Below, in pieces: positions 5,240 to 25,888 of a DNA stretch of 64,000 nucleotides. The stretch spans positions 12,998-76,997 of the forward strand of contig CALXBQ010000046.1 in NCBI GenBank assembly GCA_944386595.1, written 5' to 3'. The stretch is from an uncultured Clostridia bacterium (GTDB taxonomy: Bacteria > Bacillota > Clostridia > Peptostreptococcales > Anaerovoracaceae). Position 1 is the first letter of the stretch; the number at the start of each line of letters is the position of its first letter. The translations under genes were made by a program, and so were the position numbers. Under the pieces are notes generated by a model that was not told the DNA's origin, made no database searches, and saw only the letters and a list, made by a program, of their open reading frames with translations.

Positions 5240-5250
5240 TTTTCATTTCT

Positions 5251-7303: not shown

Positions 7304-7382
7304 TAAATAAATTCCTCCTTTTTCCCTTTCACATCAAAGTGTGAAAAGCGTTCTGTCAAAAACAAAACCGTTCGTATAGAAG

Positions 7383-7411
7383 AGAGTACCACGGACGCAG
7401 AGAAAATTCAA
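7383..7411 (-). promoter_or_regulatory. candidate sigma-A promoter of paralog 1 (TTGAAT-17-TGGTACTCT)
   Basis: Minus strand reads TTGAAT, a 17-nt spacer, then TACTCT preceded by TGG (extended -10). It lies about 80 nt upstream of ATG 7303. There is no homopolymer in the spacer. Confidence 0.4.
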
Positions 7412-7433
7412 GAGGGAAATCATTCATATCTCA

Positions 7434-7961
7434 TCAATTGGATTTCGCCTCAAGATATTCCGTAAACGAATTAGCACCTAGCTTTCTACGTTTAGACAAC
7501 ATTCTGCTCCATATAACATTCCCCTGAGATTCACTTATTATATTCCGTCTATATGCTTCCACCATAATGTCTCCAGTAGTAAAATGCCCTAACCCGTACT
7601 CTTCGATAAATACATTAATATCTCTCAGATTATTACTTGCAACCGCTCCTCCGTATGTCTTTGCAAGGGCTATGGATGCCGCCTCGCCCTTTCCTATTAT
7701 TCTATGCCCCGGAGTCGGCTCTTCTGTCAGCTGATAAAAAACGGTGTATTCTTCAGTTCCGATTTCAATATTCCTTAATATGACCTGCCCGGTTCTCAAA
7801 AGAACGTCTGTGGCGTTTCTCAGATGCGGGACGCTGGGTCGGCTCAACTCTACATATACAGGTTCCGGTATAACAATTCTGTTCGGATACAGTTTAGTAA
7901 GCATACCTTCTTCTCCAACCCATAAAAACGCCGACAGACAATCGGTGTCAAAATACAGCAT
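7434..7961 (-). CDS. PIN-like nuclease domain protein (toxin-like third gene of the XRE/ImmA module)
   Basis: MLYFDTDCLSAF... (N-terminal acidic D), GKGEAASIALA and SNNLRD motifs are typical of PIN-like domains (DUF4411/DUF3368-like). ATG 7961 starts 1 nt after the ImmA stop. The track ORF start at 8024 would overlap ImmA by 62 nt; ATG 7994 is an alternative. Confidence 0.65.
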   Translation of the reverse strand: MLYFDTDCLSAFLWVGEEGMLTKLYPNRIVIPEPVYVELSRPSVPHLRNATDVLLRTGQVILRNIEIGTEEYTVFYQLTEEPTPGHRIIGKGEAASIALAKTYGGAVASNNLRDINVFIEEYGLGHFTTGDIMVEAYRRNIISESQGNVIWSRMLSKRRKLGANSFTEYLEAKSN

Positions 7962-7962
7962 A

Positions 7963-8718
7963 TCAATCAATGACAGCTCCCCCTTCTGATTCATCTCCAA
8001 AGACAATATCGTCTCTAAAAGCATCCAGCAGCAGTTCTTCGTATTTTCCCTCTGAAATGATATCAGATTTAAATAACTTCTCCGCCTGGCTTACATAATG
8101 TCCCAATACCTTTACATTCTCACCCTGAGGTGAAGGCTTATACAGTGAAACGTTCATTCCCATTTTCGCAGTTCTGCTTATTATACCTGCCTGAATCACT
8201 TCTACATCTGCAGGTGTAATTTCTCCATCATCCTTTAAACGAACCAGCATCGCCTGATGACTTATACCGAAGTACTGCTCCAATCTGATAATCTCCTCCG
8301 GAGTGATTTTCCGTTCTTCACCTGCTTTAATGCTCTGTATTTCCTCGTACAGTGCCGCCTGCGGCATCAGCAGATATGAAGCAAACTGATCCGCTTTCTT
8401 CTCATTCTCATTTCCGGTGCCGATTTTCGATGAGCACACTGTTGATTTAACGCCGTCGTCAAAATAGTAATGATACAGTTCATGAGCTAGGGTATATCGC
8501 TGTCTTCCCACCGATTTAGCCGAATTCACTACTATAATCGCCGATGCCTCACCCCTGAAGCAGGCTCCACTTATACTTTCTCCTAACGGATAAAAGATTA
8601 AAGTCAACGAGTCAATCATCTGAACCAATGCAAAAATGTCGATTGGCGAAAGCTCATTCTCACCCAGTTTTCGCCTTATGTATACCGCCTTATTATTCAG
8701 TTCTGTTTTATTTATCAT
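7963..8718 (-). CDS. ImmA/IrrE-family zinc metallopeptidase (COG2856)
   Basis: HEXXH motif in TLAHELYHYYFDDG. Overlaps the upstream XRE gene by 11 nt, the usual XRE-ImmA arrangement. Confidence 0.85.
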   Translation of the reverse strand: MINKTELNNKAVYIRRKLGENELSPIDIFALVQMIDSLTLIFYPLGESISGACFRGEASAIIVVNSAKSVGRQRYTLAHELYHYYFDDGVKSTVCSSKIGTGNENEKKADQFASYLLMPQAALYEEIQSIKAGEERKITPEEIIRLEQYFGISHQAMLVRLKDDGEITPADVEVIQAGIISRTAKMGMNVSLYKPSPQGENVKVLGHYVSQAEKLFKSDIISEGKYEELLLDAFRDDIVFGDESEGGAVID

Positions 8719-9061
8719 TTTTCACGTCCTCATAAAGTTTATCCATTTTAAACTGATTCAGTGCAATCTTATTTATTACAGCCAAGGATGATAAATCGTC
8801 ACGTTTAAAATCCGATGTTCTGAAAGCAATCGAATATGTAGGTGTAATTTTTTCACCTGATATAATACTGGAAACAGGGCAGCAAAAGAGTGTAGCCAAC
8901 TGCTCCAGTGCGCTTGAAGTTATCGTTCTTTCTCCCTTTTCGAACTTTGAAATCAGGCTCTGGTCTACCGATAAATAATCTGCAACCTGCTTCTGTGTAA
9001 GTCCAGATTTCTCACGCAAGTTCTTCATTTTTTCACCGATCTCATATATATCTGCGTTCAT
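8708..9061 (-). CDS. XRE-family helix-turn-helix transcriptional regulator
   Basis: LREKSGLTQKQVADYLSVDQSLISKFEKGERTITSSALEQLATLF is a canonical Cro/CI-type HTH. GAGGAGG precedes ATG 9061. Confidence 0.9.
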   Translation of the reverse strand: MNADIYEIGEKMKNLREKSGLTQKQVADYLSVDQSLISKFEKGERTITSSALEQLATLFCCPVSSIISGEKITPTYSIAFRTSDFKRDDLSSLAVINKIALNQFKMDKLYEDVKNDK

Positions 9062-9097
9062 TTCATTTCGTCCTCCTCAATTACATTATACGCATTT

Positions 9098-9139
9098 TTG
9101 TCATATTGTAAATATATTTTTATATTAACAATATGACAA
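9098..9139. promoter_or_regulatory. operator: perfect 12-bp inverted repeat overlapping the XRE promoter
   Basis: TTGTCATATTGT (9098-9109), an 18-nt spacer, then ACAATATGACAA (9128-9139). On the minus strand TTTACA-16-TATAAT follows or overlaps the right arm, and GAGGAGG precedes the XRE start. Confidence 0.6.
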
Positions 9140-9246
9140 GGCCGGTAGTGCACACCTCTATCCGGGTGAGGCAAATCGCCTTATAAAAATAAATAATTCC
9201 TATCATTGAATCCCGTATTTCATCAATGTGAAAATTTCTTAGGATA

Positions 9247-10368
9247 CTATCTCTTACCAGGGAAAGAGGAAATTGCCACAGGTATTATTACCAGCGTAGA
9301 GATTAGATCAAAAAATACCAAACATGGATTATCAGAGTTCAAGTTAGTTGCCAAAATGAAATCTAATATTATCAGCTCTGATACTATTACAATCTTACAA
9401 AATCGACAAATGTTTTTCTTAAAATGTCCAACTCCCATTAAACCAGCTAATGTCCCCAGTGCTTTTTTCTCCAGAAGCATCAGCAGATATCGTACTGCAT
9501 GTACCCTTTCCTTTAAATAGTTTCGGAAAAATAAGCAAATCTTAATAACTTGATATTTCCCATTTCCCTTGTTTCCGTTGCCATGATTCTGAAGTTCATA
9601 AATCATAAATCTCTCTAGCCTTTTGTTTACTTCTTCGATCCGGATTTTTTGTGATAAAAGGCCGATGAATGAGTAAATATATATATAATGACATATTAAT
9701 GTAATAAGAATGTAACCTACTATCAGTGATATCATTAATATCTTTATTTCACTGTTCTCTGACTGAATAATGCCACGATAGATGTACATGACCCAATTTT
9801 CCCTGGTAAATAAAATTTGAAATTCAAACCACGCTAAAGGTAGAGATGTAATTCCTAACATCTTTTTCTGGTGAAATATGCTTGCTGTATTTATTTGTTT
9901 AATAAAAACCGCGCAGTAATTAACTATCTCCAATATCAATAAAAGTGCACAAACAAAACATATCACAAATGAAACAGTACTTTTCCCATGGTTGCTGCAT
10001 ATAACAAACGTGGTGGTTATAGCAATAAGCATTATCATATCTCTATATTGGCCCGGCTCGTCTGTAGCTGTACCATTTTCAATATCATTGATCAGCTTTT
10101 GTGGAATTTCAATATTAAGTTCCTTCTCAATGTTTTGAATTTCAGTAAGTTTGTGTTCACGTATCATATTAAAAATACCAAGAGCCACTTTTGCACAACA
10201 TATTAATCCAATCCCTGCGGAAGCCTTTGTAAAATACGAGATTAGATTAATATACAGTTCAATTTCCCCCGTATACGTGACAACATTGTAGTAAATTACA
10301 TATAGCGTTCCCACTATTATCACTGCAACAAAAATTTTCAACAACCGAACAAAAGTCTTTTCTTTCAT
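9247..10368 (-). CDS. hypothetical polytopic membrane protein (373 aa), very AT-rich
   Basis: At least 6 hydrophobic helices (LLKIFVAVIIVGTLYVIYY, VSFVICFVCALLLILEIV, ILMISLIVGYILITLICHYIYIY...). No recognisable motif. Ends in TAG. Confidence 0.65.
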   Translation of the reverse strand: MKEKTFVRLLKIFVAVIIVGTLYVIYYNVVTYTGEIELYINLISYFTKASAGIGLICCAKVALGIFNMIREHKLTEIQNIEKELNIEIPQKLINDIENGTATDEPGQYRDMIMLIAITTTFVICSNHGKSTVSFVICFVCALLLILEIVNYCAVFIKQINTASIFHQKKMLGITSLPLAWFEFQILFTRENWVMYIYRGIIQSENSEIKILMISLIVGYILITLICHYIYIYSFIGLLSQKIRIEEVNKRLERFMIYELQNHGNGNKGNGKYQVIKICLFFRNYLKERVHAVRYLLMLLEKKALGTLAGLMGVGHFKKNICRFCKIVIVSELIILDFILATNLNSDNPCLVFFDLISTLVIIPVAISSFPGKR

Positions 10369-10648
10369 ATCTCTTATCTCACAATGGCAATTTACGTTTC
10401 AGGAAATCACTTTTCCAGTAGTTGGAAAAATTGCATGCCAGATATCAAAAACGTTTTATTTCCCCTTCTCTCCCACCTAAAATATTTCGCTCTCACTTTA
10501 GTGCCATGCGTCAAGGCATGTGTCAATGTGTTGTCCAGACCATCACTGTATCCATTGCGCAAATCAAGCTCGATTAAAGTTCTCAAATACAAGTGGAACG
10601 CTCAGAGCAGAATAATATCGCGTTAAAGGGGTGCCTTTATGCCATATT

Positions 10649-11911
10649 TTAGATGCAATATCCTCCGGAATATTTAACGTCTTCCTGCTTAATACATTCA
10701 CATGCTTTAAAATACATTTGAATTTGTCCCAATGGTAATTTTGAAATATTTATTTTCTCTCTTTTTATACTTGCGAGAACATACTTCATCATCGGTATAG
10801 CTTTCAATTTTATACATACATCCAACAAGTCAATCACCAAATCCACACACATTATTAGACTAATCCCATCCATCAATTCTTTAATAGCCGCTAGAGCATT
10901 ATCAATCTCATTTTTGCTAACTATGTATCCCATTTCCAATTGGCTATGAAGCTCCTTTAAAAACTTAATTCGTGTACTATATTCAAATAATGTCAATGTT
11001 GAGTAATTATATATATCAATAATCTGCTTAAATAATTCCTTGACTCGAGCAGCATCGTAGAATTCCTTTGATCTCCTAATAAAATTAATTCTTTGCTCAA
11101 TCATTCTGCACCTCTCATGCACGCACTCAGTTGACAGCGTTCTCTCATAATCACCTATATCCTTATCTGCAGATTCTACAGCATATTTTATCAATTTCTC
11201 TCCCAATTCTTCGTATTTTCTCATATGTGCTTCCGAAACACCCGACGCAAACGGCATAAAGTGAATTACATCAACTTTACTAGGCATTGGTAAACTATCC
11301 ACATCCTCAAAACTGCTCCATATATCATTTAACACTTCTTCAGCTTCAAAGCCCCCATTAATTAAAAGTTGCAAGATATTTATTTTTAATTTCATTTTTT
11401 CGTCATCGAGTAACTCCATATCTTTTATATGCCAGTATAACTCTCTAATTACAGCTTCCTCCTTTGCCTTATCGCCTGTTTGTCGTGCAAGTCTAAGTTT
11501 AAAATCGTAAACGTGTTCAAGAATATTCAAATTTTTACTATCTTCTAGAACAAACAATCGATTCTTTATATCTTCATACTCCTCTTTATGCTTATCATCG
11601 TTCTCAATTAAAAAGAGGTAGTCCGTATATACCATGGACTTTATATTATTATCCTCAAAGTTTCTTGCCCTATCTACAGATTTTTGCATGAAAAAGATAG
11701 CTTCACCCATATTCCCTGCACGTACTGAAATATTTCCCATAAACGCATACAGCAAAATTGCAAATCTTTTATGAGATGCATCATCGATGAGATGACTTTC
11801 ACTTTTTAAAGCATACTCTCTTGCCCTTGGTAGGTTTCCCTGACAAAAATAAATCCTTGCTCGTAAGAAAAAGCATACCGCTTTATCCTTCTCTTCAGTA
11901 TCCTTTATCAT
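10649..11911 (-). CDS. TPR-like all-helical repeat protein (420 aa from the first ATG); possibly the C-terminal part of a 616-aa frame interrupted by TAG
   Basis: Helical-repeat text (FFLRARIYFCQGNLPRAREYALKS, LLYAFMGNISVRAGNMGEAIFFMQKSVDRA). No good SD before ATG 11911. The frame stays open 31 codons upstream, to the TAG of ORF 12005..12499. Confidence 0.6.
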   Translation of the reverse strand: MIKDTEEKDKAVCFFLRARIYFCQGNLPRAREYALKSESHLIDDASHKRFAILLYAFMGNISVRAGNMGEAIFFMQKSVDRARNFEDNNIKSMVYTDYLFLIENDDKHKEEYEDIKNRLFVLEDSKNLNILEHVYDFKLRLARQTGDKAKEEAVIRELYWHIKDMELLDDEKMKLKINILQLLINGGFEAEEVLNDIWSSFEDVDSLPMPSKVDVIHFMPFASGVSEAHMRKYEELGEKLIKYAVESADKDIGDYERTLSTECVHERCRMIEQRINFIRRSKEFYDAARVKELFKQIIDIYNYSTLTLFEYSTRIKFLKELHSQLEMGYIVSKNEIDNALAAIKELMDGISLIMCVDLVIDLLDVCIKLKAIPMMKYVLASIKREKINISKLPLGQIQMYFKACECIKQEDVKYSGGYCI

Positions 11912-12004
11912 TGATTCCGCTCTTGGAATATCACCAAGCGAAATTAAATGAGATGTTCGATCAATTAAAATGTGTGTCCATTCCTCCGGATATAAATATT
12001 CTGC

Positions 12005-12499
12005 CTAATTATTTAGAATCTCATCTAATGTTTTATATGCGCCAACTATATCTAGCATTGCACTTTGGTATTCGCTTTTTACCCTCAGATATCCTATTTT
12101 TTCATTTTTAAACTTACAATAACATGGAGGTTTCTCAATAAAATCCCTATGTGCAAGCACCTGTCCTTTCTGATACCATGCTATTTGACATTTAAATAAA
12201 GCTAATGGATTCTTAGCTATGTAGAAGATCTCTAGTGCCCATAAGATCAAAAAAACTGTAATACCTGCGCTAATTTCCAGTGAAATATGGATTTTAGTAA
12301 CAATATAAAGAAAAAAACATAAGCTGGTTATCCAAAACACAATTTTAAAATAGTTTCTTCTGTGCAAAATCTTTGACCATATATTGGAACCATATGACAC
12401 TATTCCATATCTCAAAACAAAAAACAATAGCATAAAAGGGACCAATACATATATTGTCATGCCGAAGCCTTTTGCTATTTCTAAGAAAAAATCACTCAT
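12005..12499 (-). CDS. hypothetical membrane protein (164 aa, ~4 TM), in frame with the downstream TPR-like ORF
   Basis: MTIYVLVPFMLLFFVL, IVFWITSLCFFLYIV and GITVFLILWALEIFYI helices. Ends at TAG 12007..12005. GGAGGG lies upstream of ATG 12499 and TGGTATAAT further upstream. Confidence 0.6.
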   Translation of the reverse strand: MSDFFLEIAKGFGMTIYVLVPFMLLFFVLRYGIVSYGSNIWSKILHRRNYFKIVFWITSLCFFLYIVTKIHISLEISAGITVFLILWALEIFYIAKNPLALFKCQIAWYQKGQVLAHRDFIEKPPCYCKFKNEKIGYLRVKSEYQSAMLDIVGAYKTLDEILNN

Positions 12500-12682
12500 C
12501 TTCTATACTTTCCCTCCAGAATTTCCAACTCAAATTGTAATGCAGGCAAATATATCAAAATTATAAAACAAAATGTCCAAATATAATTAAGCCTATAACC
12601 CATCATATTCAAGGGATATGCAAATTATACCATATATCAATAAGAGCAGCAACGATTCGGAACGTATGTTCGCACGATACGT

Positions 12683-12714
12683 AAAATAAAGGACCACATT
12701 TCTGTGATCCTTTA
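12683..12714 (-). terminator. rho-independent terminator downstream of paralog 2
   Basis: Minus strand reads AAAGGAUCACA-GAAA-UGUGGUCCUUU followed by AUUUUA. Confidence 0.6.
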
Positions 12715-12758
12715 TTCCGTCGAAAATCTCTTTTTCTAAAACATTACTTATGTTGCTG

Positions 12759-14675
12759 TTACGCGATTTTCTGAACTGTTGCGTTGGAAACTGCGTTCTC
12801 TCCGCCGATTACAACCAGGCCTACATAGTTAGGACTAGCTTTAACTGCATCGATAGTGTCCTGAGCTGCATCGATATTGTTCTGGTTTACGAGAACCAGA
12901 GGTGCATGATTCTGAGCTGCGAGAACTCCACCAGTAAGAGCGTCGGCATAATCCATTCCAGTAGCTACAAATGCATACTTAGCCGTACTCATATTTAATG
13001 CTGAATCGTAGCTATTGTTATATTTTGCCATTACCATCTGATTGGTTTCATATCTGTCGGCTCCGCCTGTACGAGTTACCGTAGCATCATACAGATCAGT
13101 CTCAGAAAGCTCATCTTTGATATCGTCACTTACAGCATTTCTTCCACCGATAATGTCATAAGTTCTATGACCGCCTCTAGTTAATCCGTGCAGATAGCTT
13201 CTCTGCTCCCTAGTCAGCTCAGTTCCAACAAGAAGAACAGGTTTTCCAGTAGCTGCTGCAGAGAGTGCATCTGGGTAATTAGTTCCAGATGCTACTAAGA
13301 TATTGTCGAGATTTGTCGGGTCAGCTCCAACCACTCCTAAAGCATCATATTCCTGCATAACCTTGATATTGGTGTCATATCTAGTCTCTCCGGCGATTCT
13401 CTCTACGTCAACATTGTACTGTCCGAGACTGTCTTCGAACTCTGCAGATACTGCGTTAGTTCCACCTACAATATAAACAGTGGTTCCTGCATAGCTTGCA
13501 GTGTTCTGATCAATGTATGCTTTTACTTCATCCTCGTAATCGCTATTTACAAGAAGTATCGGTGCATTCATAGCATTAGCCAATGCCGTTACAGAAAGTG
13601 CATCTGCATAGTTGGTTCCGGTAGCTACGAAAATCTTAGTGAAGTTACCAGCGTTGTCCATCTGGTCAGCTACGAGCATAGCTGTTTCGTATCTGTTAGC
13701 TCCTGCCAGTCTGTCATAGATGGCAAGTGGGTTCATATCGCCTCCCCAAGTGTAGGTTCTGAAGATTCCAGAAGTCTGATTGCCTTTTACTTCTAAGGTA
13801 ATATAGCAGCCTTCATAAGTATTATCCAGAAGATTGATATATCTTCCGTCCCAACCAATATAGCCACTACCAGTGTCGATAACCGTAACGTTCCCGTTCT
13901 TGTCAGTTGCCTTCCAAGTAAGATCTGCATAATCAAGCATTTCATCTATGGACACTTCTGTGCCATCGTCAAACGTGATGCTCTCAACTCTGTAAGCTTC
14001 ACCTTTAACTACCTGATCCACAACCTGTTCTCTATCATACTTGTCAAGTTCAACACTCCAATCAGCCGGATCAGCCTTAACAATCTTCACATCAGTAACC
14101 TTAGTAGGTACAGCGTTCTGATAAACAACGGTGTGATAGTCAGTGTTGGTAGCGCTTGCCCAAGGTCTAACTTCTACAGATACAACTGTTACAGGCTCTA
14201 CAGAACCAAGATCCCATCTGAGATAGTCTTCAACTCCTGCACTGGTGCCCTTCTCGTCAACATTCAGGAATACAAATCCGTTGGCAGTATCAACATTCCA
14301 AGAGAAAGTTGTTATGCTCTTTTCAATCGGATTGCCATCATGGTTTGCATTTCCATACTTCCAAACACCATCATTATCAAAGTTTGCGACATAATGGTAT
14401 AAATCACCATTTGTGCCCCTGAGTGTAAGGTCGATTTCCCAGATTCCACTAGTTCTGAGCATATCAACATTAACATCATAGGACTTGTCGGCGCTTATAG
14501 ATTCATTATAGGTGTTCTCAATGCCACCTTTGAGATCATTCGCATCGTCTAGTACAACCGCATTAGCAGTAGGCATATCTACCTTATCAGACGGCTCCCA
14601 GACAGCGAATACAGGTACAGCGCTGGTAACAACCATAGCGGCTGTAACTGCAAAAGCCACAAGTTTCTTTTTCAT
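12759..14675 (-). CDS. secreted cell-wall/S-layer-type protein, variable N-terminus + 3x CWB2 (paralog 2)
   Basis: Signal peptide MKKKLVAFAVTAAMVVTSAVPVFA. Three repeats of RLAGANRYETA...ATGTNYADALS...APILLVN. C-terminus is ...GGENAVSNATVQKIA. Confidence 0.9.
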   Translation of the reverse strand: MKKKLVAFAVTAAMVVTSAVPVFAVWEPSDKVDMPTANAVVLDDANDLKGGIENTYNESISADKSYDVNVDMLRTSGIWEIDLTLRGTNGDLYHYVANFDNDGVWKYGNANHDGNPIEKSITTFSWNVDTANGFVFLNVDEKGTSAGVEDYLRWDLGSVEPVTVVSVEVRPWASATNTDYHTVVYQNAVPTKVTDVKIVKADPADWSVELDKYDREQVVDQVVKGEAYRVESITFDDGTEVSIDEMLDYADLTWKATDKNGNVTVIDTGSGYIGWDGRYINLLDNTYEGCYITLEVKGNQTSGIFRTYTWGGDMNPLAIYDRLAGANRYETAMLVADQMDNAGNFTKIFVATGTNYADALSVTALANAMNAPILLVNSDYEDEVKAYIDQNTASYAGTTVYIVGGTNAVSAEFEDSLGQYNVDVERIAGETRYDTNIKVMQEYDALGVVGADPTNLDNILVASGTNYPDALSAAATGKPVLLVGTELTREQRSYLHGLTRGGHRTYDIIGGRNAVSDDIKDELSETDLYDATVTRTGGADRYETNQMVMAKYNNSYDSALNMSTAKYAFVATGMDYADALTGGVLAAQNHAPLVLVNQNNIDAAQDTIDAVKASPNYVGLVVIGGENAVSNATVQKIA

Positions 14676-14751
14676 TACATCCTCCTTCTCACTTTTTTCA
14701 AAAGTGAACGTGTTTTAGTTTGATAATACAGCAACATAAATTATCGTGATA

Positions 14752-14781
14752 AGAGTACCACAGGCTTCTAAATTTTGTCAA
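14752..14781 (-). promoter_or_regulatory. candidate promoter of paralog 2 (TTGACA-18-TGGTACTCT)
   Basis: Minus strand reads TTGACA (14781-14776), an 18-nt spacer, then TACTCT (14757-14752) preceded by TGG. The leader box AGCAACATAAAT lies at 14730-14741. There is no homopolymer. Confidence 0.4.
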
Positions 14782-15022
14782 GACACAAAAAACCTTGTGA
14801 AATCGCGGGAAATCATCGGAGTTAAATACATAATTGACAAAGACTGTAATTTTTTATCCGTCAAAGTACACCTACAAAATCTAAAGTCTACAATTATATG
14901 TCCGGCATTTTTTGATTTGTAGTTTCAGATTCTCTGTCGGAATGTTTGTTCAGAAAAATATACAAGAAATTTTTTCAAAAAAACAATTAAAGACTCGTCG
15001 GGTTCTCGGGACGTCTTTTCGC

Positions 15023-15061
15023 AAAAACAAAAACAGAACCCCGGTGCGAACCGAGGTTCTG
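15023..15061 (-). terminator. rho-independent terminator ending the paralog 3 transcript
   Basis: Minus strand reads CAGAACCUCGG-UUCGCA-CCGGGGUUCUG followed by UUUUUGUUUUUG. Confidence 0.75.
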
Positions 15062-15234
15062 CAAGAAACACCAACGCGATTTTTCTATGTTGCTGCATTA
15101 TCAAAATCTGACGGAGGTGTTTTCAGCTATTTTTTTCCGAATAAATGTCCGGAATACATATCGAGTCGCGACCACCTAGGTCGCGACTCAATATCCTTGA
15201 AAATCGTTTTTATTAGTCTATTTATGTTGCTATG
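15023..15234 (-). other. conserved structured 3' UTR module of paralog 3
   Basis: In mRNA order: an 8-bp stem GAAAAUCG/CGAUUUUC (15199-15247) encloses the stop codon and box UAGCAACAUAAAU (15220-15232). Next is a 16-bp GC hairpin (15158-15194). Then an inverted pseudo-leader with CACCUCC and UGCAGCAACAUA (15085-15120). The terminator is last. Confidence 0.55.
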
Positions 15235-17205
15235 TTATGCGATTTTCTGAACTGTTGCGTTGGAAACTGCGTTCTCTCCGCCGATTACTACCATACCTGC
15301 GTAGTCAGTATTGTCTGCAACTCTGTCTACAGTATCACTTGCAGGATCTGTTACGTTAGCATTTACAAGAGCCAGAGGTGCACCGTTCTGAGCTGCGAGA
15401 ACTCCTCCAGTTAACGCATCTGGATAATCCATACCGGATGCTACGAATACATACTTAGCGCTGTCTATTGTCGGTACGAACTTATCCATAACCATCATGT
15501 TAGTCTCGTATCTGTTAACGCCACCGACACGAGTTACGCTATTAGCACTGTATGCCTTTTCGAGAAGCTCATCCTTGATGTCATCGCTTACTGCAACTCT
15601 TCCGCCTACAATAACATAATCCACATCACTGTAAGTGCTGATCACATCATGTAAGTAAGTTCTCTGAGCCTTAGTAAGTTCATCACCCACAAGAAGAACT
15701 GGCTTGCCAGTAGCTGCTGCAGAAAGGGCATCTGGATAATCCATTCCGGATGCTACAAGGATCTCTCCCATGCTACCGTTCACCGTACCGATTCCACCCT
15801 TAGTCTCATCATTGTCAAATGCCTTGAGTACTTCGATATTAGTATCGTATCTGGTGTCACCGGCAATTCTCTCTACATCAACTACAAATTTCTTCAGTTC
15901 TTTTTCGAATGATGCAGATACAGCACTAGTTCCGCCTACAATATAAACCTCAGCGTTGTAGCTGGACAGATTAGCCTTGATGTAAGCAGCAACTTCATCT
16001 TCATGAGCTGCATTCACAAGAAGGATAGGTGCATCTACTTTGTTAGCGAGAGCTGTTACAGAAAGTGCATCAGCATAGTTAGTTCCGGTTGCTACGAAGA
16101 TTTTATCAAATCCGGTTCCGTCATTCATCTGGTCAGCAACTTTCATAGCGGTATCATATCTGTCATCACCAGCAATTCTCTGCTGGATTGCGAGAGATTC
16201 AGCATCCTCTCCCCATGTGGTTTCACCAAAGATACCGGAAGTCTTGTTACCGGTAACAGTTAAAGTTACATATGCGCCTTCGTACTTATCCGAAACGTAG
16301 AATTCAGTACCACCATAGCTCTTATCGTTAAGCTTATTTCCGGCAGCATCATACATATTCATTGCTGTTCCGTCTCTCTTGGTAACCTCCCAGCTAAGAT
16401 TTACATATTCTTCAACTGCGTTCTTGTCACCAGTTACATTCTTAACCTCAACCGGATTTCCATTATCATCAACAGTCCATCCGTTGATTACAGTTCCGTC
16501 ATTGAAAGTTATGCTTTTTACAACATACCAATCTTTAATTACCGGCTGATCTACAACCTGAAAATCTCCATATCTGTCAAGTATAGGGGTACCGGTTTTG
16601 TCAGCAAGAACAACTTCCACGCTAGCTACCTCGTCAGGAATCTGATTCTGGTAAACTACCGCAGTACCACTTACATCATTTCCGCCCCATCCTTCGAAAA
16701 CTACTGATTCTACATATTCAACTTCAGGATCAAGCTCTATAACGTAAGTTCTCTCTGTTCCATAAATGCCCTGATCATCGACGATCATTTCTACAAACTT
16801 CGTATCATGGGAAGTGTCAAATCTCCATGTCAAAGTGGTGATTCCACTTACACCGCATAAATCTTCGTTCGCTTCATGGCCTTTGATAAATACATGAGAG
16901 CCCGAATCACGATTTATTCCGAGAATCTGCTGGTATTCCTTGCCGTTGTTTCCTGTCATGTTCAGAACATACTGGTAGCTACCACCCGTTCTGTTCATGT
17001 CAACGGTTATACTATACTCAGCGTCATCAGTGATTTTGGTATGGTTGTAATTTTCAACAATACCGCCCTCCAGATGGGTACTGGTGAGTACGACCTCGTT
17101 ACTTTCAGGCACGCTGTCACCAGTAGCAGTCCAAGCAAGTGCAGGTACAGCGCTGGTGATCACCATAGCGGCTGTAACTGCAAAAGCCACAAGTTTCTTT
17201 TTCAT
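15235..17205 (-). CDS. secreted cell-wall/S-layer-type protein, variable N-terminus + 3x CWB2 (paralog 3)
   Basis: Signal peptide MKKKLVAFAVTAAMVITSAVPALA. Three repeats of RIAGDDRYDTA...ATGTNYADALS...APILLVN. C-terminus is GGENAVSNATVQKIA. Confidence 0.9.
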   Translation of the reverse strand: MKKKLVAFAVTAAMVITSAVPALAWTATGDSVPESNEVVLTSTHLEGGIVENYNHTKITDDAEYSITVDMNRTGGSYQYVLNMTGNNGKEYQQILGINRDSGSHVFIKGHEANEDLCGVSGITTLTWRFDTSHDTKFVEMIVDDQGIYGTERTYVIELDPEVEYVESVVFEGWGGNDVSGTAVVYQNQIPDEVASVEVVLADKTGTPILDRYGDFQVVDQPVIKDWYVVKSITFNDGTVINGWTVDDNGNPVEVKNVTGDKNAVEEYVNLSWEVTKRDGTAMNMYDAAGNKLNDKSYGGTEFYVSDKYEGAYVTLTVTGNKTSGIFGETTWGEDAESLAIQQRIAGDDRYDTAMKVADQMNDGTGFDKIFVATGTNYADALSVTALANKVDAPILLVNAAHEDEVAAYIKANLSSYNAEVYIVGGTSAVSASFEKELKKFVVDVERIAGDTRYDTNIEVLKAFDNDETKGGIGTVNGSMGEILVASGMDYPDALSAAATGKPVLLVGDELTKAQRTYLHDVISTYSDVDYVIVGGRVAVSDDIKDELLEKAYSANSVTRVGGVNRYETNMMVMDKFVPTIDSAKYVFVASGMDYPDALTGGVLAAQNGAPLALVNANVTDPASDTVDRVADNTDYAGMVVIGGENAVSNATVQKIA

Positions 17206-17277
17206 TACATCCTCCTTCTCACTTTGTTAAAGTGATGTTTGCTTTGATTAAGTTTTAGCAACATAAATTTCACAGTA

Positions 17278-17308
17278 AGTATACCCCCCCCCGGTAAATA
17301 TTTGTCAA
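17278..17308 (-). promoter_or_regulatory. sigma-A promoter of paralog 3 with a G9 tract in the spacer
   Basis: Minus strand reads TTGACA (17308-17303), AATATTTACC, G9 (C-run 17284-17292), TATACT (17283-17278). The spacer is 19 nt. An A-rich UP-like stretch lies upstream. Confidence 0.7.
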
Positions 17309-17707
17309 CACCTAATTTTTGCCCCTATGGGGGATAATACGGATGGTTTTGACAAAAAGCTCATCGTAATGACTATGCCTCTATTCCTTGATAATTTAAG
17401 GCTATAGCCTGTTTTAGTGTTCCTGCAAAGTCGTGAGAACCGGTTTTCTGCGCAGATAATTTCGCAAAAAAACTTTTTTATTCATTGCTGTTTTTGGCCA
17501 TTTTCCCTCTTCCGTAGACTCGTGTAAGTTAAATTCATTAAACCTCGCTCAGAGGGGCAAATTTCGCTTCCATTTTTTTACAAATCGTTGAAATTTCAAC
17601 GATTTTCGCGATTTTTCGCGGACTTTCTCAAAGTGGCCCCGGCTTCGTAAAAATCCACTTTTTTCCGTATCTCAAAAAACCACCATTTCCAACGTTTTTG
17701 AGCACAC

Positions 17708-17732
17708 AAAAAGAACCGCATCATTGCGGTCC
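17708..17732 (-). terminator. rho-independent terminator ending the paralog 4 transcript
   Basis: Minus strand reads GGACCGCA-AUGA-UGCGGUUC followed by UUUUUGUG. Confidence 0.75.
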
Positions 17733-17900
17733 TTAATTGAAAATCACCCGGCGATTCATTATGTTGCTGCACTATCAAACCGCCGGAGGTGTTTCCCACT
17801 TATTTTGTTATAATCCCGGATACAATATCGAGCCGTGACCTTACGGTCACGACTCAATATCCCTGAAAATCGTTTTTATTAGTCTATTTATGTTGCTATG
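17708..17900 (-). other. conserved structured 3' UTR module of paralog 4
   Basis: Same order as in paralog 3: post-stop box at 17886-17898, GC hairpin at 17825-17860, pseudo-leader / anti-SD at 17759-17795, then the terminator. Confidence 0.55.
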
Positions 17901-19832
17901 TTATGCGATTTTCTGAACTAATTCGTTGGATACTGCATTTTCTCCACCGAATACTACCATTCCGTATGCTGGATCTACAGCCTTAACGATTCTCTTAGCA
18001 GCCTTGTAGTTGCTGTCATTTACGAGTACCAGAGGTGCTCCTTCCTTAGCAGCGAGTACTCCACCAGCAAGTGCATCTGCATAATCGTTTCCGGTTGCTA
18101 CAAATACATAAGCTGCATCCTTGTAGTTAGGAACAAGCTTTTCAACGATGTTTCTGTTGGTTGCATATCTGTCAGCTCCACCGATACGTTCTACCTTCTT
18201 AGCATCAGCGATGTAGCTTCTTCCAGCAAGCTCGTTAAGGATGTTGCCGTTAACTGCAGTTGTTCCACCGAGAACCTTGATGTTCTTTACTGCGTAGTTT
18301 ACACCATCAGTGAGGTCTTCTCTTAAGAATTCTCTCTGATCCTTAGTCAGTCTATCACCAACAAGAAGTACAGGATATCCAGTTGCGGATGCAGAGAGTG
18401 CATCTGCATAATTGGTACCGGTAGCTACAAGGAGTGTTCTCATTCCATCATGATATCCGGTTCCAAGATTATTTGTCACCTCATCGTATGCCTTAAGCAC
18501 TTCAAGGTTAGTATCATATCTGTTGTCGCCTGCAAGTCTTTCAACATCTACGTCGAGCTTATAGAGCTTATCGGTAAATGCCTTGGATACAGCTTCATAT
18601 CCACCGATTACATAAACGTTAACATTGTAGCTAGCAGCATTGTCCATGATGTAATCTGCAACTGTATCTTCAGTTCCTGCGTTTACAAGAAGTATAGGCG
18701 CACCAATCGCCTTAGCAAAAGCTGTAGCGGACAGAGCATCTGCATACTGGTTAGCATTTCCTGTAGCAACAACATAGTTGGTGAATCCCTTTGCAAGCTT
18801 CATCTCATCAGCGATTGCCATAGCAGTTTCAAATCTGTCAGCACCTGCGATTCTGTCCATAATAGCGAGTGCGGAAGCATCATCACCCCATGTACCGTCG
18901 GTAAATATTCCGGAAGCCTTTTTTGCAACTGCCTTCAATGTAACATACTTACCCTTATAGCCATCTTTCACGGTAAATACATTAGATGCACTTTCTCCAT
19001 GATTAGTACCATCTGAATTAGTGATTACCCACTTGTAGTCAGCATATTTTGAAATCTCACCACCGTTCCACTTATAGGAACCATCTTTGTCAAGATTGTA
19101 GTTGGAAATTACAGTCTCATCATCAAAGGTAATGCTGTAAATAGCGTAAGTTTCTCCTATTACTGGCTGATCAGCAAACTGAAGCTTACCATATTTATCC
19201 AACTCAGGAACTCCAGCTTCAGTTGACTTAATTACCTGAACATCTACAATCTTGCTAGGAAGCTGCTCATCATAAACGATAGCCTGATGTCCATCCTTTA
19301 CATCTCCGTCCCAACCTTCGAACACTACGTTTTCAACGGATTCTACTTCCTTATCGAGTTTGATAGTGAACACCTCGTCAACGCCCTTTGTTCCCTGGTT
19401 GTCCACTTCTAAGTAGAGATATTTCTGATTAGGATCTCCGGCAATGTCAAACTTCCAGGTAAGAGTAGTAATCGCTGCAGGAACGGCAACATTCTTTCCC
19501 GAATCAACTACGCTCAAACCTTTTGCACCGAGACTGGTATCAATTGCCAATACCTCATCATACTTCTGTCCCTGGTTACCTACCATGTTGATAGCATACC
19601 TGAAGGTACCCTTTGTTCTCAAGAAGTCAACATTAACGGTGTAGGTATCACCGTCACTAATTGTGGTTCCGGTCTGGGAAATACCGCCCTTGAGATGAGT
19701 GTTGTCGATGAGCACCTCATTTGTCTCAGGCATGGTCTGGGTATTGTCCGGACCCCAAACAGCGAATGCAGGTACAGCGCTTGTTACAATCATAGCGGCT
19801 GTAACTGCAAAAGCCACAAGTTTCTTTTTCAT
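17901..19832 (-). CDS. secreted cell-wall/S-layer-type protein, variable N-terminus + 3x CWB2 (paralog 4)
   Basis: Signal peptide MKKKLVAFAVTAAMIVTSAVPAFA. Three repeats of RIAGADRFETA...ATGNANQYADALS...APILLVN. C-terminus is GGENAVSNELVQKIA. Confidence 0.9.
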   Translation of the reverse strand: MKKKLVAFAVTAAMIVTSAVPAFAVWGPDNTQTMPETNEVLIDNTHLKGGISQTGTTISDGDTYTVNVDFLRTKGTFRYAINMVGNQGQKYDEVLAIDTSLGAKGLSVVDSGKNVAVPAAITTLTWKFDIAGDPNQKYLYLEVDNQGTKGVDEVFTIKLDKEVESVENVVFEGWDGDVKDGHQAIVYDEQLPSKIVDVQVIKSTEAGVPELDKYGKLQFADQPVIGETYAIYSITFDDETVISNYNLDKDGSYKWNGGEISKYADYKWVITNSDGTNHGESASNVFTVKDGYKGKYVTLKAVAKKASGIFTDGTWGDDASALAIMDRIAGADRFETAMAIADEMKLAKGFTNYVVATGNANQYADALSATAFAKAIGAPILLVNAGTEDTVADYIMDNAASYNVNVYVIGGYEAVSKAFTDKLYKLDVDVERLAGDNRYDTNLEVLKAYDEVTNNLGTGYHDGMRTLLVATGTNYADALSASATGYPVLLVGDRLTKDQREFLREDLTDGVNYAVKNIKVLGGTTAVNGNILNELAGRSYIADAKKVERIGGADRYATNRNIVEKLVPNYKDAAYVFVATGNDYADALAGGVLAAKEGAPLVLVNDSNYKAAKRIVKAVDPAYGMVVFGGENAVSNELVQKIA

Positions 19833-19902: not shown

Positions 19903-19933
19903 AGTATACCCCCCCCCGGTAAATATTTGTCAA
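19903..19933 (-). promoter_or_regulatory. sigma-A promoter of paralog 4 with a G9 tract in the spacer
   Basis: TTGACA (19933-19928), 19-nt spacer with C-run 19909-19917, TATACT (19908-19903). Confidence 0.7.
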
Positions 19934-20754: not shown

Positions 20755-20785
20755 GAAAAAAGACCGCAGGTTTCCCCGCGGCCCT
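20755..20785 (-). terminator. rho-independent terminator ending the paralog 5 transcript
   Basis: Minus strand reads GGCCGCGG-GGAAA-CCUGCGGUC followed by UUUUUUCG. Confidence 0.7.
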
Positions 20786-20983
20786 AGAAATCACCTGGCG
20801 ATTTATCTATGTTGCTGCACTATCAAATCACCGGAGGTGTTTCTTGTTATTAAATTTCGCCGCGCAAAACCCGCAGCCTCGTTAATCTCAATAATTCCTG
20901 AGACAATATCGAGCCGCGACCTTCCTGGCCGCGACTCAATATACTGAAAATCGTGTTTACTTTAGTCTATTTATGTTGCTATG
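20755..20983 (-). other. conserved structured 3' UTR module of paralog 5
   Basis: Post-stop box at 20969-20981, GC hairpin at 20906-20942, pseudo-leader / anti-SD at 20807-20845, then the terminator. Confidence 0.55.
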
Positions 20984-22933
20984 TTATGCGATTTTCTGAA
21001 CTAATTCGTTGGATACTGCATTTTCTCCACCGATTACTACAAGTCCTGCATAGTTGGAATTAGATCCTGTGTTAACCATCTCAATGATGTCCTTAGCAGG
21101 GTCGATTTCGCTGTTGTTTACCAGTACGAGCGGTGCACCATTGTGTGCAGCCAGTGCTCCACCGGTAAGTGCGTCTGCATAATCGTTTCCAGTTGCAACG
21201 AATACATACTTAGCAGAACCCTTATTTTCAACGAACTTTTCCATAACCATCATGTTGGTTTCAAATCTGTCAGCTCCGCCTATTCTGGTTACGCTCTTTG
21301 CTTTGTAAGCTTTAGAGGAAAGTTCATCTTTTACATCATCGCTTACAGCATTTCTTCCGCCAATGATTGTGTAGTTTCTCTGATCTGCTGCTTCGCTATT
21401 AATCTCATAGATATAATTTCTCTGCTCCTTTGTAAGCGCATCTCCTACCAGAAGAACCGGCTTGCCAGTAGCAGCTGCAGAAAGTGCATCTGGGAAATTA
21501 TTACCGGAAGCTACGAGAATATCAAACATATCTCCGTCTGCTCCTATACCTTCTGGTGCCTTGTTATCAAATGCCTTCAGAACCGCAATGTTAGTTGCAT
21601 ATCTGTCAGCACCTGCAATTCTGTCTACATCTACTGCGAACTTCTTAAGCGCTGTTTCAAAGTCTGCGGATACAGCCTTTTCTCCACCAACGATATACAC
21701 GTTAGCATTGTAATTTGCTGCGTTATCCTTAATGTACTGTGCTACTTTTTCTTCATAATCGCCATTTACCAGAAGAACCGGTGCGCCTACTTTATCAGCA
21801 AGTGCGGTTACAGAAAGTGCATCTGCGTAGTTAGCTCCTGTAGCTACGAAAATGTTGGTAAATCCGTCTGCTGGCTTCATCTGATCAGCAACCTTTATAG
21901 CGGTTTCATATCTGTCAGCGCCAGCGATTCTCTGCTGAATAGCAATGGATTCTGCATCTTCACCCCATGTTGCCTCGCCGAAAATACCAGAAGTCTTGTT
22001 GCCGGAAACAGTAGCCGTTACATATGCACCCTTGTAATTGTCGTTGTTAACTTCGAAGTGAACATTCTTAGAAAGATTTTCTAACTTAACTTCTGTACCG
22101 TCTCTCTTAGTAACTGCCCAGTTATAGTTAACATACTCTCCTACATCACCAGTGTAACCCGTTACCTTTCCGTCTTTGATGACAAAGTTACTAATTTCAG
22201 TTCCATCATTAAAGGTGATGCTGTTAACCACATACTTTCCACCGAAAACCGGCTGGTCTACTACCTGAACTCTGCCATATTTATCAAGGTCAGGAATCCA
22301 TCCGGTCATTTCGTTCACTCCATTTACATACTCAGCCTTAACTACTTCTACGTCAGTTACATATTCAGGAACCTGATCCTGGTAAATGGTAGTAGTATCG
22401 CTAGCAGCACCAGCTTTGTAACCATCTCTGTTAACAACCGATACGGATACTACTTCTTCTGCTTCTGTTGGGAGATCCCACTCAAGGTAAGTATCTACAG
22501 CCGTTGTAGTATTCAGTGAGTCAACATTAAGAAAAATCTTCTTGGCTTTTTCGCTTACTTCCCAAGAGAAAGTAGTGATTCCCGTATTGATAGTCTTGTG
22601 TGATCCAGGTACACCGCCCTTCCAAACCTGATCATTATCAAATACAGCCTTTGTTGTGATAATCTTATCCTTATTGGTTCTCAGGTCAAGACTTAAAACA
22701 TAGTTACCACTGGTCTTTAACAGGTCAACGGTAACACCGTAGGTAGCACCTTCTGTTATAGAGGCTTCAATCTCGTTAGTGATTCCGCCTTTAAGGGTAT
22801 CCTTATCGAGAACAACTGCATTGGCTTCAGGCCAATCAGCCTGTCCTGCAGGACCCCACTCAGCAAATACAGGTACAGCGCTGGTTACTACCATAGCGGC
22901 TGTAACTGCAAAAGCCACAAGTTTCTTTTTCAT
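20984..22933 (-). CDS. secreted cell-wall/S-layer-type protein, variable N-terminus + 3x CWB2 (paralog 5)
   Basis: Signal peptide MKKKLVAFAVTAAMVVTSAVPVFA. Three repeats of RIAGADRYETA...ATGANYADALS...APVLLVN. C-terminus is GGENAVSNELVQKIA. Confidence 0.9.
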   Translation of the reverse strand: MKKKLVAFAVTAAMVVTSAVPVFAEWGPAGQADWPEANAVVLDKDTLKGGITNEIEASITEGATYGVTVDLLKTSGNYVLSLDLRTNKDKIITTKAVFDNDQVWKGGVPGSHKTINTGITTFSWEVSEKAKKIFLNVDSLNTTTAVDTYLEWDLPTEAEEVVSVSVVNRDGYKAGAASDTTTIYQDQVPEYVTDVEVVKAEYVNGVNEMTGWIPDLDKYGRVQVVDQPVFGGKYVVNSITFNDGTEISNFVIKDGKVTGYTGDVGEYVNYNWAVTKRDGTEVKLENLSKNVHFEVNNDNYKGAYVTATVSGNKTSGIFGEATWGEDAESIAIQQRIAGADRYETAIKVADQMKPADGFTNIFVATGANYADALSVTALADKVGAPVLLVNGDYEEKVAQYIKDNAANYNANVYIVGGEKAVSADFETALKKFAVDVDRIAGADRYATNIAVLKAFDNKAPEGIGADGDMFDILVASGNNFPDALSAAATGKPVLLVGDALTKEQRNYIYEINSEAADQRNYTIIGGRNAVSDDVKDELSSKAYKAKSVTRIGGADRFETNMMVMEKFVENKGSAKYVFVATGNDYADALTGGALAAHNGAPLVLVNNSEIDPAKDIIEMVNTGSNSNYAGLVVIGGENAVSNELVQKIA

Positions 22934-23004: not shown

Positions 23005-23034
23005 AGTATACCCCCCCCGGTAAATATTTGTCAA
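23005..23034 (-). promoter_or_regulatory. sigma-A promoter of paralog 5 with a G8 tract in the spacer (the only 18-nt spacer)
   Basis: TTGACA (23034-23029), 18-nt spacer with C-run 23011-23018 (8 C), TATACT (23010-23005). Confidence 0.7.
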
Positions 23035-23662: not shown

Positions 23663-23969
23663 TCGTTCGAAAATCCCTTGTGGCTTTTGCTTTATGTTGC
23701 TGCATAAACTTAATCACTGGGAGATTTTCCTTGTTTTGTTTTCGTGGGGTATCCCCCCGAAAGGACAAAGTGTGCCGCCCGGATCTTCGGCATCCGGGTT
23801 ATGAGCCCGACGCGCTTACCAGCACCGGCCTGTCGCTTGCCTCAAGCGTTCTGTAATCTTCCTCCTGTCTTTTCGGTGAGACACTTTTTATATAATATCG
23901 AGCCGCGGGCATTAACTCCGCGACTCGATATCTTTTGAAAATCGTGTTTACTTTAGTCTATTTATGTTG
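23634..23969 (-). other. conserved structured 3' UTR module of paralog 6 (longer variant)
   Basis: Post-stop box at 23960-23972 overlaps the TAG stop. GC hairpin at 23895-23931. Pseudo-leader at 23691-23735, where TTTATGTTGCTGCATAAACTTAATCA mirrors the 5' leader TTTATGTTGCTAAAACTTAATCA. Confidence 0.55.
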
Positions 23970-25820: not shown

Positions 25821-25888
25821 TACATCCTCCTTCTCACTTTGTTAAAGTGATGTTTGCTTATTAGTTTAGCAACATAAATTTCACAGTA

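Follow-up and report, generated by a model that had tools for sequence, protein, structure and literature searches.

A two-part 3'-UTR RNA module with 5'-end complementarity in a tandem array of CWB2 surface-protein genes from an uncultured Clostridia bacterium

Results

The CWB2 array and its conserved gene ends

A tandem array of CWB2 paralogs was analysed in a 64,000-nucleotide stretch (the window) of contig CALXBQ010000046.1 (positions 12,998 to 76,997) from an uncultured Clostridia bacterium, together with two RNA elements in the 3' untranslated regions (UTRs) of its genes: a stem-loop around the stop codon (SL1) and a GC-rich hairpin downstream of it (GC hairpin). The array occupies 12.7-28.3 kb of the window on the minus strand and comprises six genes whose products are ~620-656 aa each. 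These are the first array gene, paralog 7 (26302-28242), followed by paralogs 6 (23970-25820), 5 (20984-22933), 4 (17901-19832) and 3 (15235-17205), and the last array gene (12759-14675). In every array gene scanned, three CWB2 cell-wall-binding repeats are encoded at the C-terminal end and the N-terminal half is variable, and the products are predicted to be variable, cell-wall-anchored surface proteins of an S-layer-like kind. Sequence conservation is concentrated in two islands, one covering promoter, 5' UTR and signal peptide, the other the last ~40 nt of the coding sequence and ~100 nt of 3' UTR. Identity in these islands was 0.6-1.0, compared to mostly 0.2-0.7 in the intervening coding sequence.

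Many homologues of the paralog 3 protein were detected on metagenome contigs in ENA, where the organism is present in samples ERZ16268053-ERZ16268286. About 15 related contigs with the same array were compared, several of which are syntenic via flanking genes for PhzF and phosphate butyryltransferase. All array genes of these contigs share the UTR elements though the encoded proteins are only 34-66% identical.

A stem-loop around the stop codon

In the mRNA of paralog 3, SL1 (15199-15247, minus strand) is formed by pairing of GAAAAUCG (15240-15247) with CGAUUUUC (15199-15206). Its 5' arm consists of the last sense codons, K-I-A, and its loop contains the stop codon UAA and a short conserved sequence termed box 1 (AGCAACAUAAAU; 15220-15231, minus strand). 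The end of this mRNA thus reads ...CAG AAA AUC GCA UAA CAU AGCAACAUAAAU AGACUAAUAAAAA CGAUUUUC AAGG AUAUUGAGUCGCGACC UAGGU GGUCGCGACUCGAUAU... An earlier interpretation made from the sequence only (the sequence-only reading) had described a stem that loops out stop codon and box in paralog 3, and both its coordinates and its sequences were correct. It had also assigned the stem to copies 2, 4, 5 and 7 and a pairing variant to copy 6. All of these were recovered, at 12722-12771, 17865-17913, 20946-20996, 23937-23991 and 26265-26314 (minus strand), with the SL1 of paralog 6 (23937-23991) formed by GGAAAUCGU and ACGAUUUUC. The SL1 stem comprises 8-9 bp, and in five of the six array genes the GC hairpin begins 3-8 nt downstream.

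Pairing of SL1 was complete (100%) in the 35 distinct copies of a model-based alignment (see below). Three positions varied, two by A-to-G changes in the coding arm and one by an A-to-G change in the 3' arm, and all three are compatible with G·U pairing. Within the coding arm, K-I is encoded by AAA ATC in 23 out of 23 distinct gene ends, and codons located just upstream of the arm vary synonymously (GGT/GGC/GGA, GAG/GAA, GTA/GTT, TCC/TCT and four Leu codons). Because the coding arm is frozen at synonymous sites and double changes do not occur, it is conservation beyond coding need, and not covariation, that supports SL1.

A covarying GC hairpin on the mRNA strand

The GC hairpin of paralog 3 (15158-15194, minus strand) has a stem of 16 bp (AUAUUGAGUCGCGACC-UAGGU-GGUCGCGACUCGAUAU) and is not followed by a U-tract. 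Further copies are located on the same strand at 17825-17860, 20906-20942, 23895-23931 and 26221-26257. No GC hairpin is present after the last array gene (12759-14675), where a canonical terminator stands instead. A pattern representing the hairpin arms matched ten times in the window (0.7 matches expected).

Covariation was examined in an arms-only alignment of 15 distinct variants, in which loops were replaced by AAAA and a single bulge was removed to hold the columns in register. The arms were paired to 97.9%, and five of the 16 pairs had changed on both sides (C-G/U-A, G-C/C-G, C-G/G-C, C-G/U-A and U-A/C-G). The covariation score was reached by none of 500 shuffles, and slid controls were paired to approximately 32%. 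The copies are paralogs and close orthologues of one narrow lineage, and a portion of the lower stem was predetermined by the regular expression with which they were collected; it left the upper stem unconstrained, and that is where the informative changes lie.

A covariance model of SL1 plus GC hairpin was built from a 28-copy alignment. It identified 46 strong copies (76-126 bits), each directly 3' of an array gene, while scores on the antisense strand were only 19-32 bits. In the window these include the modules of paralog 4 (17825-17913, consisting of SL1 at 17865-17913 and the GC hairpin at 17825-17860; 119.5 bits), paralog 5 (20906-20996, SL1 at 20946-20996 and GC hairpin at 20906-20942; 105.7 bits), paralog 6 (23895-23991, SL1 at 23937-23991 and GC hairpin at 23895-23931; 94.5 bits) and paralog 7 (26221-26314, SL1 at 26265-26314 and a bulged GC hairpin at 26221-26257; 84.4 bits), all on the minus strand. 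In the model-based alignment (35 distinct rows) the GC hairpin was paired to 96.8%, again with five doubly changed pairs. RNAalifold, applied to the 28 copies, independently predicted exactly two helices, SL1 and the GC hairpin, and folds of single sequences spanning both elements had z-scores of -5 to -7.

Cells of the arms-only alignment that deviate from Watson-Crick pairing were almost all G·U in the mRNA sense (35/240) and thus A·C on the opposite strand. In every variant the sense fold of the GC hairpin (-22 to -28.5 kcal/mol) was more stable than the antisense fold (-10 to -23 kcal/mol). As the hairpin is paired in diverged copies, shows compensatory double changes, and contains G·U pairs that are possible only on the mRNA strand, comparative analysis identifies it as a conserved, covarying RNA structure that appears to be under selection on that strand.

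A hairpin with compensatory changes had been described by the sequence-only reading at the five loci given above for the GC hairpin, and the present data bear this out. Covariation was seen in the GC hairpin, with its five doubly changed pairs, and not in SL1, with three wobble-compatible single changes only. At the level of individual pairs, the reported replacement of C-G in copy 3 by T-A in copy 4 is real (columns 12/25 of the arms alignment; U-A in the mRNA). The second reported replacement, of a C-A mismatch by C-G, had been read on the wrong strand and represents a transition from a U·G wobble to C-G in the mRNA. Two details have to be corrected in addition: the hairpin of copy 7 contains a one-base bulge, and that of copy 6 has irregular apical pairs.

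Relation of the GC hairpin to terminators

The true intrinsic terminator of paralog 3 (15022-15062, minus strand) consists of a 13-bp hairpin followed by UUUUUGUUUUU. A consensus terminator scan called such downstream sites with hairpin and U-run (e.g., 15033-15062, 17711-17734, 20760-20785 and 26039-26068), and none of the GC hairpins. With a U-tail score of the d'Aubenton-Carafa type, values of 0.5-1.7 were obtained for GC hairpins, 2.0-5.0 for true terminators, and 0.81±0.76 for random 15-mers of the window. The GC hairpin thus has one hallmark of a terminator, a stable GC-rich hairpin 3' of the stop codon (16 bp), and lacks the other, a U-tract directly 3' of it. Its classification as a canonical terminator was therefore rejected. 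True U-tract terminators follow about 90-270 nt downstream, roughly as previously claimed (100-300 nt). The associated statement that the hairpins are located inside the transcript and are not terminators is not established: it took only the missing U-tract into account, and in the last gene a true terminator fills the same place.

In that gene the arrangement (12676-12771, minus strand) consists of SL1 (12722-12771), with the box ACAGCAACAUAA, and a canonical terminator directly downstream. It was matched by the whole covariance model with 44.4 bits. More generally, the model matched SL1 plus terminator (44-50 bits) and, in the first gene, a second stem-loop (SL3; see below) plus terminator (37-42 bits) over the full length. 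By its position the GC hairpin is thus the equivalent of a terminator hairpin minus its U-tail. Because of this match, and because a true terminator stands at the corresponding place in the last gene, weak factor-dependent termination has to be considered. The GC hairpin would then be a weak or factor-dependent (NusA/NusG-type) intrinsic terminator, the first of a tandem pair that insulates independently switched genes, and SL1 would be incidental. Insulation would be useful since every array gene comes with a separate promoter whose poly-G spacer is variable, and the GC-rich hairpin includes AU-rich pairs (AUAU/AUAU) that resemble a paired A-tract and U-tract. We nevertheless regard this explanation as somewhat unlikely: tail scores are within the random range (0.8±0.8), the consensus scan made no call, a strong terminator follows in every case, termination would require neither the conserved G·U positions nor the lower-stem sequence, and the boxes are left unexplained.

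Complementarity between 3'-UTR boxes and mRNA 5' ends

The 9-mer AGCAACATA of the boxes was found 18 times in the window (0.41 matches expected), with 17 of the 18 matches inside the array. Sense copies are located in the 3' UTRs, one or two in each: box 1 in the SL1 loop, where it starts 1-6 nt after the stop codon, and box 2 in the apical loop of SL3, which does not apply to the last gene. One antisense copy, UAUGUUGCU, is located a few nucleotides downstream of the -10 element of each promoter. The promoter of paralog 3 (17278-17308, minus strand) is composed of TTGACA, a 19-nt spacer with G9, and TATACT; the start of its 5' UTR (17235-17267, minus strand) comprises the 5' box UUUAUGUUGCU (core 17257-17265) and an imperfect local partner, AGCAAACAU. 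Judged from the promoter consensus, the 5' box should cover approximately nucleotides +4 to +17 of the predicted transcript.

In paralog 3, box 1 and the U before it form a 13-nt complement to AUUUAUGUUGCUA, which lies at the 5' end of this mRNA. Among the array genes, complementarity between the 5' box and the gene's own box 1 extends over 12-14 nt (10 nt in one last-gene variant, in locus L008), and a contiguous complement in the range proposed for 5'/3'-UTR interactions (at least ~7-14 nt in the same gene) exists in nearly all genes with a 5' box. The complement is extended in a class-dependent manner, by ATTATGTTGCTATT in first genes, ATTTATGTTGCTA in middle genes and TTATGTTGCTGT in last genes. 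Cofolding of the 5' leader with the 3' UTR gained 7-12 kcal/mol over separate folds. Three kinds of substitutions were found in the 3' boxes of relatives, all of them A-to-G changes opposite a U of the 5' box and hence compatible with G·U pairing. The sequence-only reading had compared the looped-out box to the way in which antisense partners are displayed in kissing loops; such a partner does exist, namely the 5' end of the same mRNAs, and a kissing-loop geometry is plausible.

A seventh CWB2 paralog is located outside the array (5456-7303). A promoter and a leader of its own precede it, and its 3' end is plain. In its flanks (5250-5480 and 7295-7440) neither the AGCAACATA box nor SL1 nor a GC hairpin was found. 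Because 5' box, 3' box and hairpin are missing together, this gene serves as a natural negative control.

A second stem-loop upstream of the terminator

In all array genes except the last one, SL3 is located just upstream of the true terminator. The SL3 of paralog 3 (15065-15124, minus strand; z = -3.1) carries box 2, GCAGCAACAUA (15086-15094), in its apical loop. Those of paralogs 4, 5 and 6 are located at 17739-17796, 20787-20844 and 23669-23730, respectively (minus strand). In paralog 7, SL3 (26076-26127; box AGCAACAUAAAUUUCA) and the terminator form a unit (26029-26127, minus strand) that scored 42.5 bits and has the same architecture as SL1 plus hairpin. Four SL3 subtypes were distinguished. 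Their stems are unrelated in sequence, the box is apical in all of them, and z-scores ranged from -2.1 to -3.7. A covariation analysis of subtype a, based on a MAFFT alignment, revealed no double changes and is uninformative as the arms were misaligned.

The SL3 box of the first gene is complementary over 16 nt to the 5' end of the next gene's mRNA, as represented by the middle genes. Most SL3 boxes read CAGCAACAUA and fit the 5' box of the last gene as well as or better than that of their own gene. This raises the possibility that SL3 plus terminator is a 3'-UTR-derived small RNA (sRNA) acting in trans on sibling 5' ends, perhaps cut free after the GC hairpin, which would protect the upstream mRNA. 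The architecture is typical for such molecules, with a seed of 9-16 nt displayed in a loop and followed by a Rho-independent terminator, and the first gene's box has a perfect 16-nt match to middle-gene 5' ends and only 10 nt to its own. We judge this proposal to be rather unlikely, given that neither a promoter-like nor a defined processing site was found between GC hairpin and SL3, that no Rfam family matched, and that an sRNA directed against all paralogs would also hit its own source mRNA.

As an observation in its own right, the SL3 box of the first gene, AGCAACATAAATTTCA (26094-26109), is a perfect 16-nt inverted repeat of 25868-25883, the predicted 5' end of the next mRNA. The two copies flank 217 bp that contain terminator and promoter, and the same arrangement was seen in related loci (L003, L004, L020 and L023). 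Such a pair could serve RNA pairing in trans or upon read-through, or DNA inversion. No inverted variant of the segment was seen in the loci examined.

Elements acting on DNA would be either inverted-repeat sites of a recombinase, as in a cwpV- or fimS-like switch, or operator half-sites, with the hairpins being cruciform or single-stranded-DNA structures. The boxes do form inverted repeats (9-16 bp) around each terminator-promoter segment and around each gene, including the perfect 16-bp repeat around 217 bp with a promoter in the first intergenic region. In addition, an inverted repeat that resembles an operator is formed by the 5' box and AGCAAACAT immediately 3' of the promoter, and the genes encode variable surface proteins. 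However, all of the ~47 promoter-gene units on independent array contigs have one orientation and no locus contains a recombinant junction, most of the inverted repeats share only 9-13 bp, and the last gene keeps its 3' box though no array promoter follows. No recombinase is encoded by the 19 open reading frames (ORFs) scanned, which flank the array and represent part of the window. Moreover, pairing of RNA rather than identity of DNA is favoured by the hairpin, with its G·U-only asymmetry, and by the boxes, with their A-to-G changes. An action on DNA is thus very improbable. Inversion would create the junction GAAATTTATGTTGCTATGTTATG or, at the first gene, ATTACAGCAACATAAATTTCACAGTAAG. JGI metagenomes were scanned for an exact recombinant junction. 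The absence of matches is weak evidence and says little, as the organism is absent from that collection, in which the SL1 pattern also found chance matches only.

Distribution of the element

A protein-based scan of GTDB genomes detected nothing. When GTDB species representatives were scanned with an SL1 DNA pattern, the element was found in a single metagenome-assembled genome (MAG), CASFAX01 ("uncultured Firmicutes bacterium"); a further match, in a Dysgonamonadaceae MAG, was dismissed as a chance terminator-like palindrome. The SL1 pattern had four matches in JGI metagenomes, all by chance and none a genuine copy, and a scan of IMG/VR for the hairpin gave zero matches, from which we conclude that the element is not phage-borne. 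Since one GTDB MAG only possesses the element and neither JGI nor IMG/VR holds a genuine copy, it is specific to one lineage. Rfam families did not match at gathering score in the whole window, nor at E ≤ 1 in the region 14600-17400.

Two classes of known elements were considered and rejected. Repetitive extragenic palindromes (REPs) and miniature inverted-repeat transposable elements do not apply as the element is confined to the array and strand-asymmetric; the dispersal typical of REPs and bacterial interspersed mosaic elements was not observed, because model and pattern matches occurred only at 3' ends of array genes (64-kb window and 15 related loci). Integron attC sites and hairpins of diversity-generating retroelements were discarded since loops rather than arm ends are conserved, the variable region is N-terminal, and no reverse transcriptase or integrase is encoded by the ORFs scanned.

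Restriction to one lineage would also fit a module without present function, i.e., a relic of a duplication unit (gene end plus former terminator) homogenised by gene conversion. SL3 plus terminator of the first gene keeps a remnant of a gene end (GAAAAUCGCAUAU...), indicating that gene 3' ends were indeed duplicated. A functionless relic is, however, difficult to reconcile with compensatory double changes and 97% pairing maintained in diverged copies, with sharply bounded conserved islands beside coding sequence of about 30-70% identity, with frozen synonymous sites in the SL1 arm, and with 5' and 3' boxes that are present or absent together. We therefore consider it distinctly improbable.

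Discussion

A module that may join the two mRNA ends

The interpretation we favour, with a probability of roughly 0.4, is that a two-part RNA module in the 3' UTR ties the ends of the mRNA together and protects its 3' end, similar to what is known for hbs of Bacillus subtilis. The structure is well supported and the function plausible. The first part would be SL1, recurring downstream as SL3, whose large loop presents the box AGCAACAUA(AAU). The complement of this box lies within the first ~20 nt of the same predicted mRNAs (AUUUAUGUUGCUA), and the loop may thus dock the mRNA 5' end. The second part would be the very stable 16-bp hairpin 3-8 nt downstream, which after SL1 is devoid of a U-tract and after SL3, as well as after the SL1 of the last gene, is the true terminator.

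In B. subtilis, mRNAs are stabilised against RNase J1 by structures located no more than a few nucleotides from the 5' end. Pairing of the 5'-terminal box with one or more 3'-UTR loops could hide the 5' end from 5'-end-dependent decay (RNase J1, RppH, RNase Y), and the GC hairpin might block 3'-to-5' exonucleases and/or mark a processed 3' end. In this way, the mRNA of an abundant surface (S-layer-like) protein would be closed end to end and long-lived. As the 5' arm of SL1 consists of the last three codons and the box starts 1-6 nt after the stop codon, we infer that a terminating ribosome must open SL1, which would couple the 5'/3' interaction to translation.

Several findings weigh against this interpretation. 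The SL3 box of the first gene matches its own 5' end over 10 nt and that of the next gene over 16 nt. There is not a single compensatory double change in SL1 among 35 distinct copies. Cross-class complements measure 11-12 nt and are thus only 1-3 nt shorter than the gene's own (12-14 nt), which makes class specificity modest. The local 5'-UTR partner AGCAAACAU could compete for the 5' box. In the last gene the 5' hairpin (GAUAAU/AUUAUC) is not significantly stable (-1.1 kcal/mol, z = -0.27), and no reliance is therefore placed on loop-loop geometry in that gene. Transcription start sites, read-through at the GC hairpin and the actual 3' ends were all deduced from promoter and terminator consensus sequences. 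Finally, the shuffle statistics overstate the support for covariation since the copies are not independent, being derived from one lineage with possible gene conversion.

Comparison with known systems

To our knowledge, the bacterial mRNAs with functional 5'/3'-UTR pairing are few and include hbs and icaR. A bacterial 3'-UTR structural module with 5'/3'-UTR complementarity is of a known, albeit rare, kind. What is new is the position of the box in a loop overlapping the stop codon, the duplication of the box in each 3' UTR, the covarying hairpin without U-tract, and the array-wide presence of the module in variable surface-protein genes.

In the hbs mRNA of B. subtilis, a 14-bp interaction between 5' and 3' UTR limits or modulates cleavage by RNase Y (Braun, Durand & Condon 2017, PMC5737220). 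Both cases concern Firmicute mRNAs for abundant proteins with a long-range 5'/3'-UTR complement of ~14 bp for which control of ribonuclease access to the 5' end is proposed. Unlike in hbs, the complement of the array genes is located in a loop over the stop codon, occurs twice per 3' UTR, is common to tandem paralogs and joined with a U-less GC hairpin, and is known from sequence alone. In Staphylococcus aureus icaR, a 3'-UTR motif targets the Shine-Dalgarno (SD) sequence, blocks initiation and creates a substrate for RNase III (Ruiz de los Mozos et al. 2013, PMC3868564). By contrast, the array mRNAs would be targeted at their extreme 5' end, with about 45-50 nt between the 5' box and the downstream SD sequence (AGGAGG), and pairing with the latter was not found. 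Direct translational repression is unlikely because the 5' box sits about 45 nt upstream of the SD sequence.

Intrinsic and tandem terminators resemble the GC hairpin in being GC-rich hairpins just 3' of a gene, the same position as that of the last paralog's real terminator, and differ in that the array hairpin lacks a U-tract and a canonical terminator follows 90-270 nt later. Stabilising hairpins at mRNA 3' ends include the "positive retroregulator" of cry1Aa from Bacillus thuringiensis and REP hairpins of Escherichia coli such as that of malE-malF. They are likewise stable hairpins 3' of highly expressed genes and, like the array hairpin, could block 3'-to-5' exonucleases. REPs, however, are dispersed genome-wide whereas the array hairpin is found only after array genes, and the cry element is itself a terminator. 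With fimS of E. coli and cwpV/RecV of Clostridioides difficile the array shares variable surface-protein genes and short inverted repeats flanking a promoter segment; cwpV, too, encodes a CWB2 protein. It differs in that no orientation variants were seen in the loci inspected, no recombinase is encoded among the ORFs scanned, the repeat core is only 9 bp, and G·U pairs are strand-asymmetric. SL3 plus terminator has the seed-in-loop form of 3'-UTR-derived sRNAs at mRNA 3' ends and, in contrast to them, is a sequence-based prediction without match to an Rfam family.

The module is compact (~100 nt), and the array would provide a family-wide example with comparative evidence of its own, in which many natural variants are available, complements are class-specific and a hairpin covaries. 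Confirmation would reveal how bacteria can give the mRNAs of abundant envelope proteins a "closed" form and a long lifetime, and might uncover coordination at the RNA level of phase-variable paralogs whose promoters contain hypermutable poly-G spacers.

Promoters, leaders and neighbouring genes

A poly-G run is present in the spacer between -35 and -10 elements of five of the six array promoters (TTGACA-N10-Gn-TATACT). The runs, on the minus strand at 17284-17292, 19909-19917, 23011-23018, 25895-25903 and 28324-28332, have n = 9, 9, 8, 9 and 9, respectively. In orthologous promoters of related contigs n varies from 7 to 10, with one interrupted run (G6AG2) in L023. The pattern suggests phase variation of the individual paralogs by strand slippage, with homopolymer sequencing error as a possible contribution. 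The promoter of the last array gene (14753-14781) has no poly-G run and a TG-extended TACTCT, followed by the 5' box UUAUGUUGCUGU; this gene may be expressed constitutively, as a "default" within the array. In locus L005 (5180-5310), one promoter is devoid of both -10 element and 5' box.

Phase variation and shared boxes could in principle be connected. The 3'-UTR loops or the SL3 sRNA of a gene in the ON state would pair in trans with sibling 5' ends, including that of the presumably constitutive last gene, while in cis the better-matched box 1 would cover the 5' end of the gene's own mRNA. Such RNA cross-talk is very doubtful at present; if it occurred, it would impose a hierarchy or mutual exclusion in which one surface protein is dominant at a time.

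Two further conserved features were noted near the promoters. About 20-35 nt upstream of array start codons (e.g., 17220-17234) and directly before GAGAAGGAGG, the 5' UTR contains an SD-adjacent hairpin, CACUUUaacaAAGUG. Covarying forms of it (CACCCGaaaGGGUG, CACCUGaaaAGGUG, CACUUAgagaUAAGUG) occur in paralogs and relatives, and it probably serves in the leader to stabilise the mRNA or position the ribosome. Upstream of several array promoters (about 25930-25990 and equivalents) there is a conserved segment, CCCCCACACCGGTTCCGCCGGCGTTT...GATTTCTCACAGGTTCAAAAAATAGGTG, with a small CCGG hairpin inside, which may be an upstream promoter element or bind a regulator.

Rearrangements were observed on related contigs. 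L010 (1-4500) contains an inverted partial paralog beside a Bro-N gene, and the breakpoints of this rearrangement fall within coding and terminator sequence, not at a box. A gene for a Phd antitoxin is inserted in the array of L003 (3694-4267) and of L004, accompanied in L003 by a ParE toxin gene. In the window itself, array and outlying paralog are separated by an island (7434-12499) that encodes an HTH_3 protein and M78/ImmA-IrrE peptidase pair (7963-9061), a TPR-like protein, and ORFs without Pfam match. As relatives carry other genes at this position (AAA_23/RloB, FRG or Mrr), the island looks like a variable defence or mobile island.

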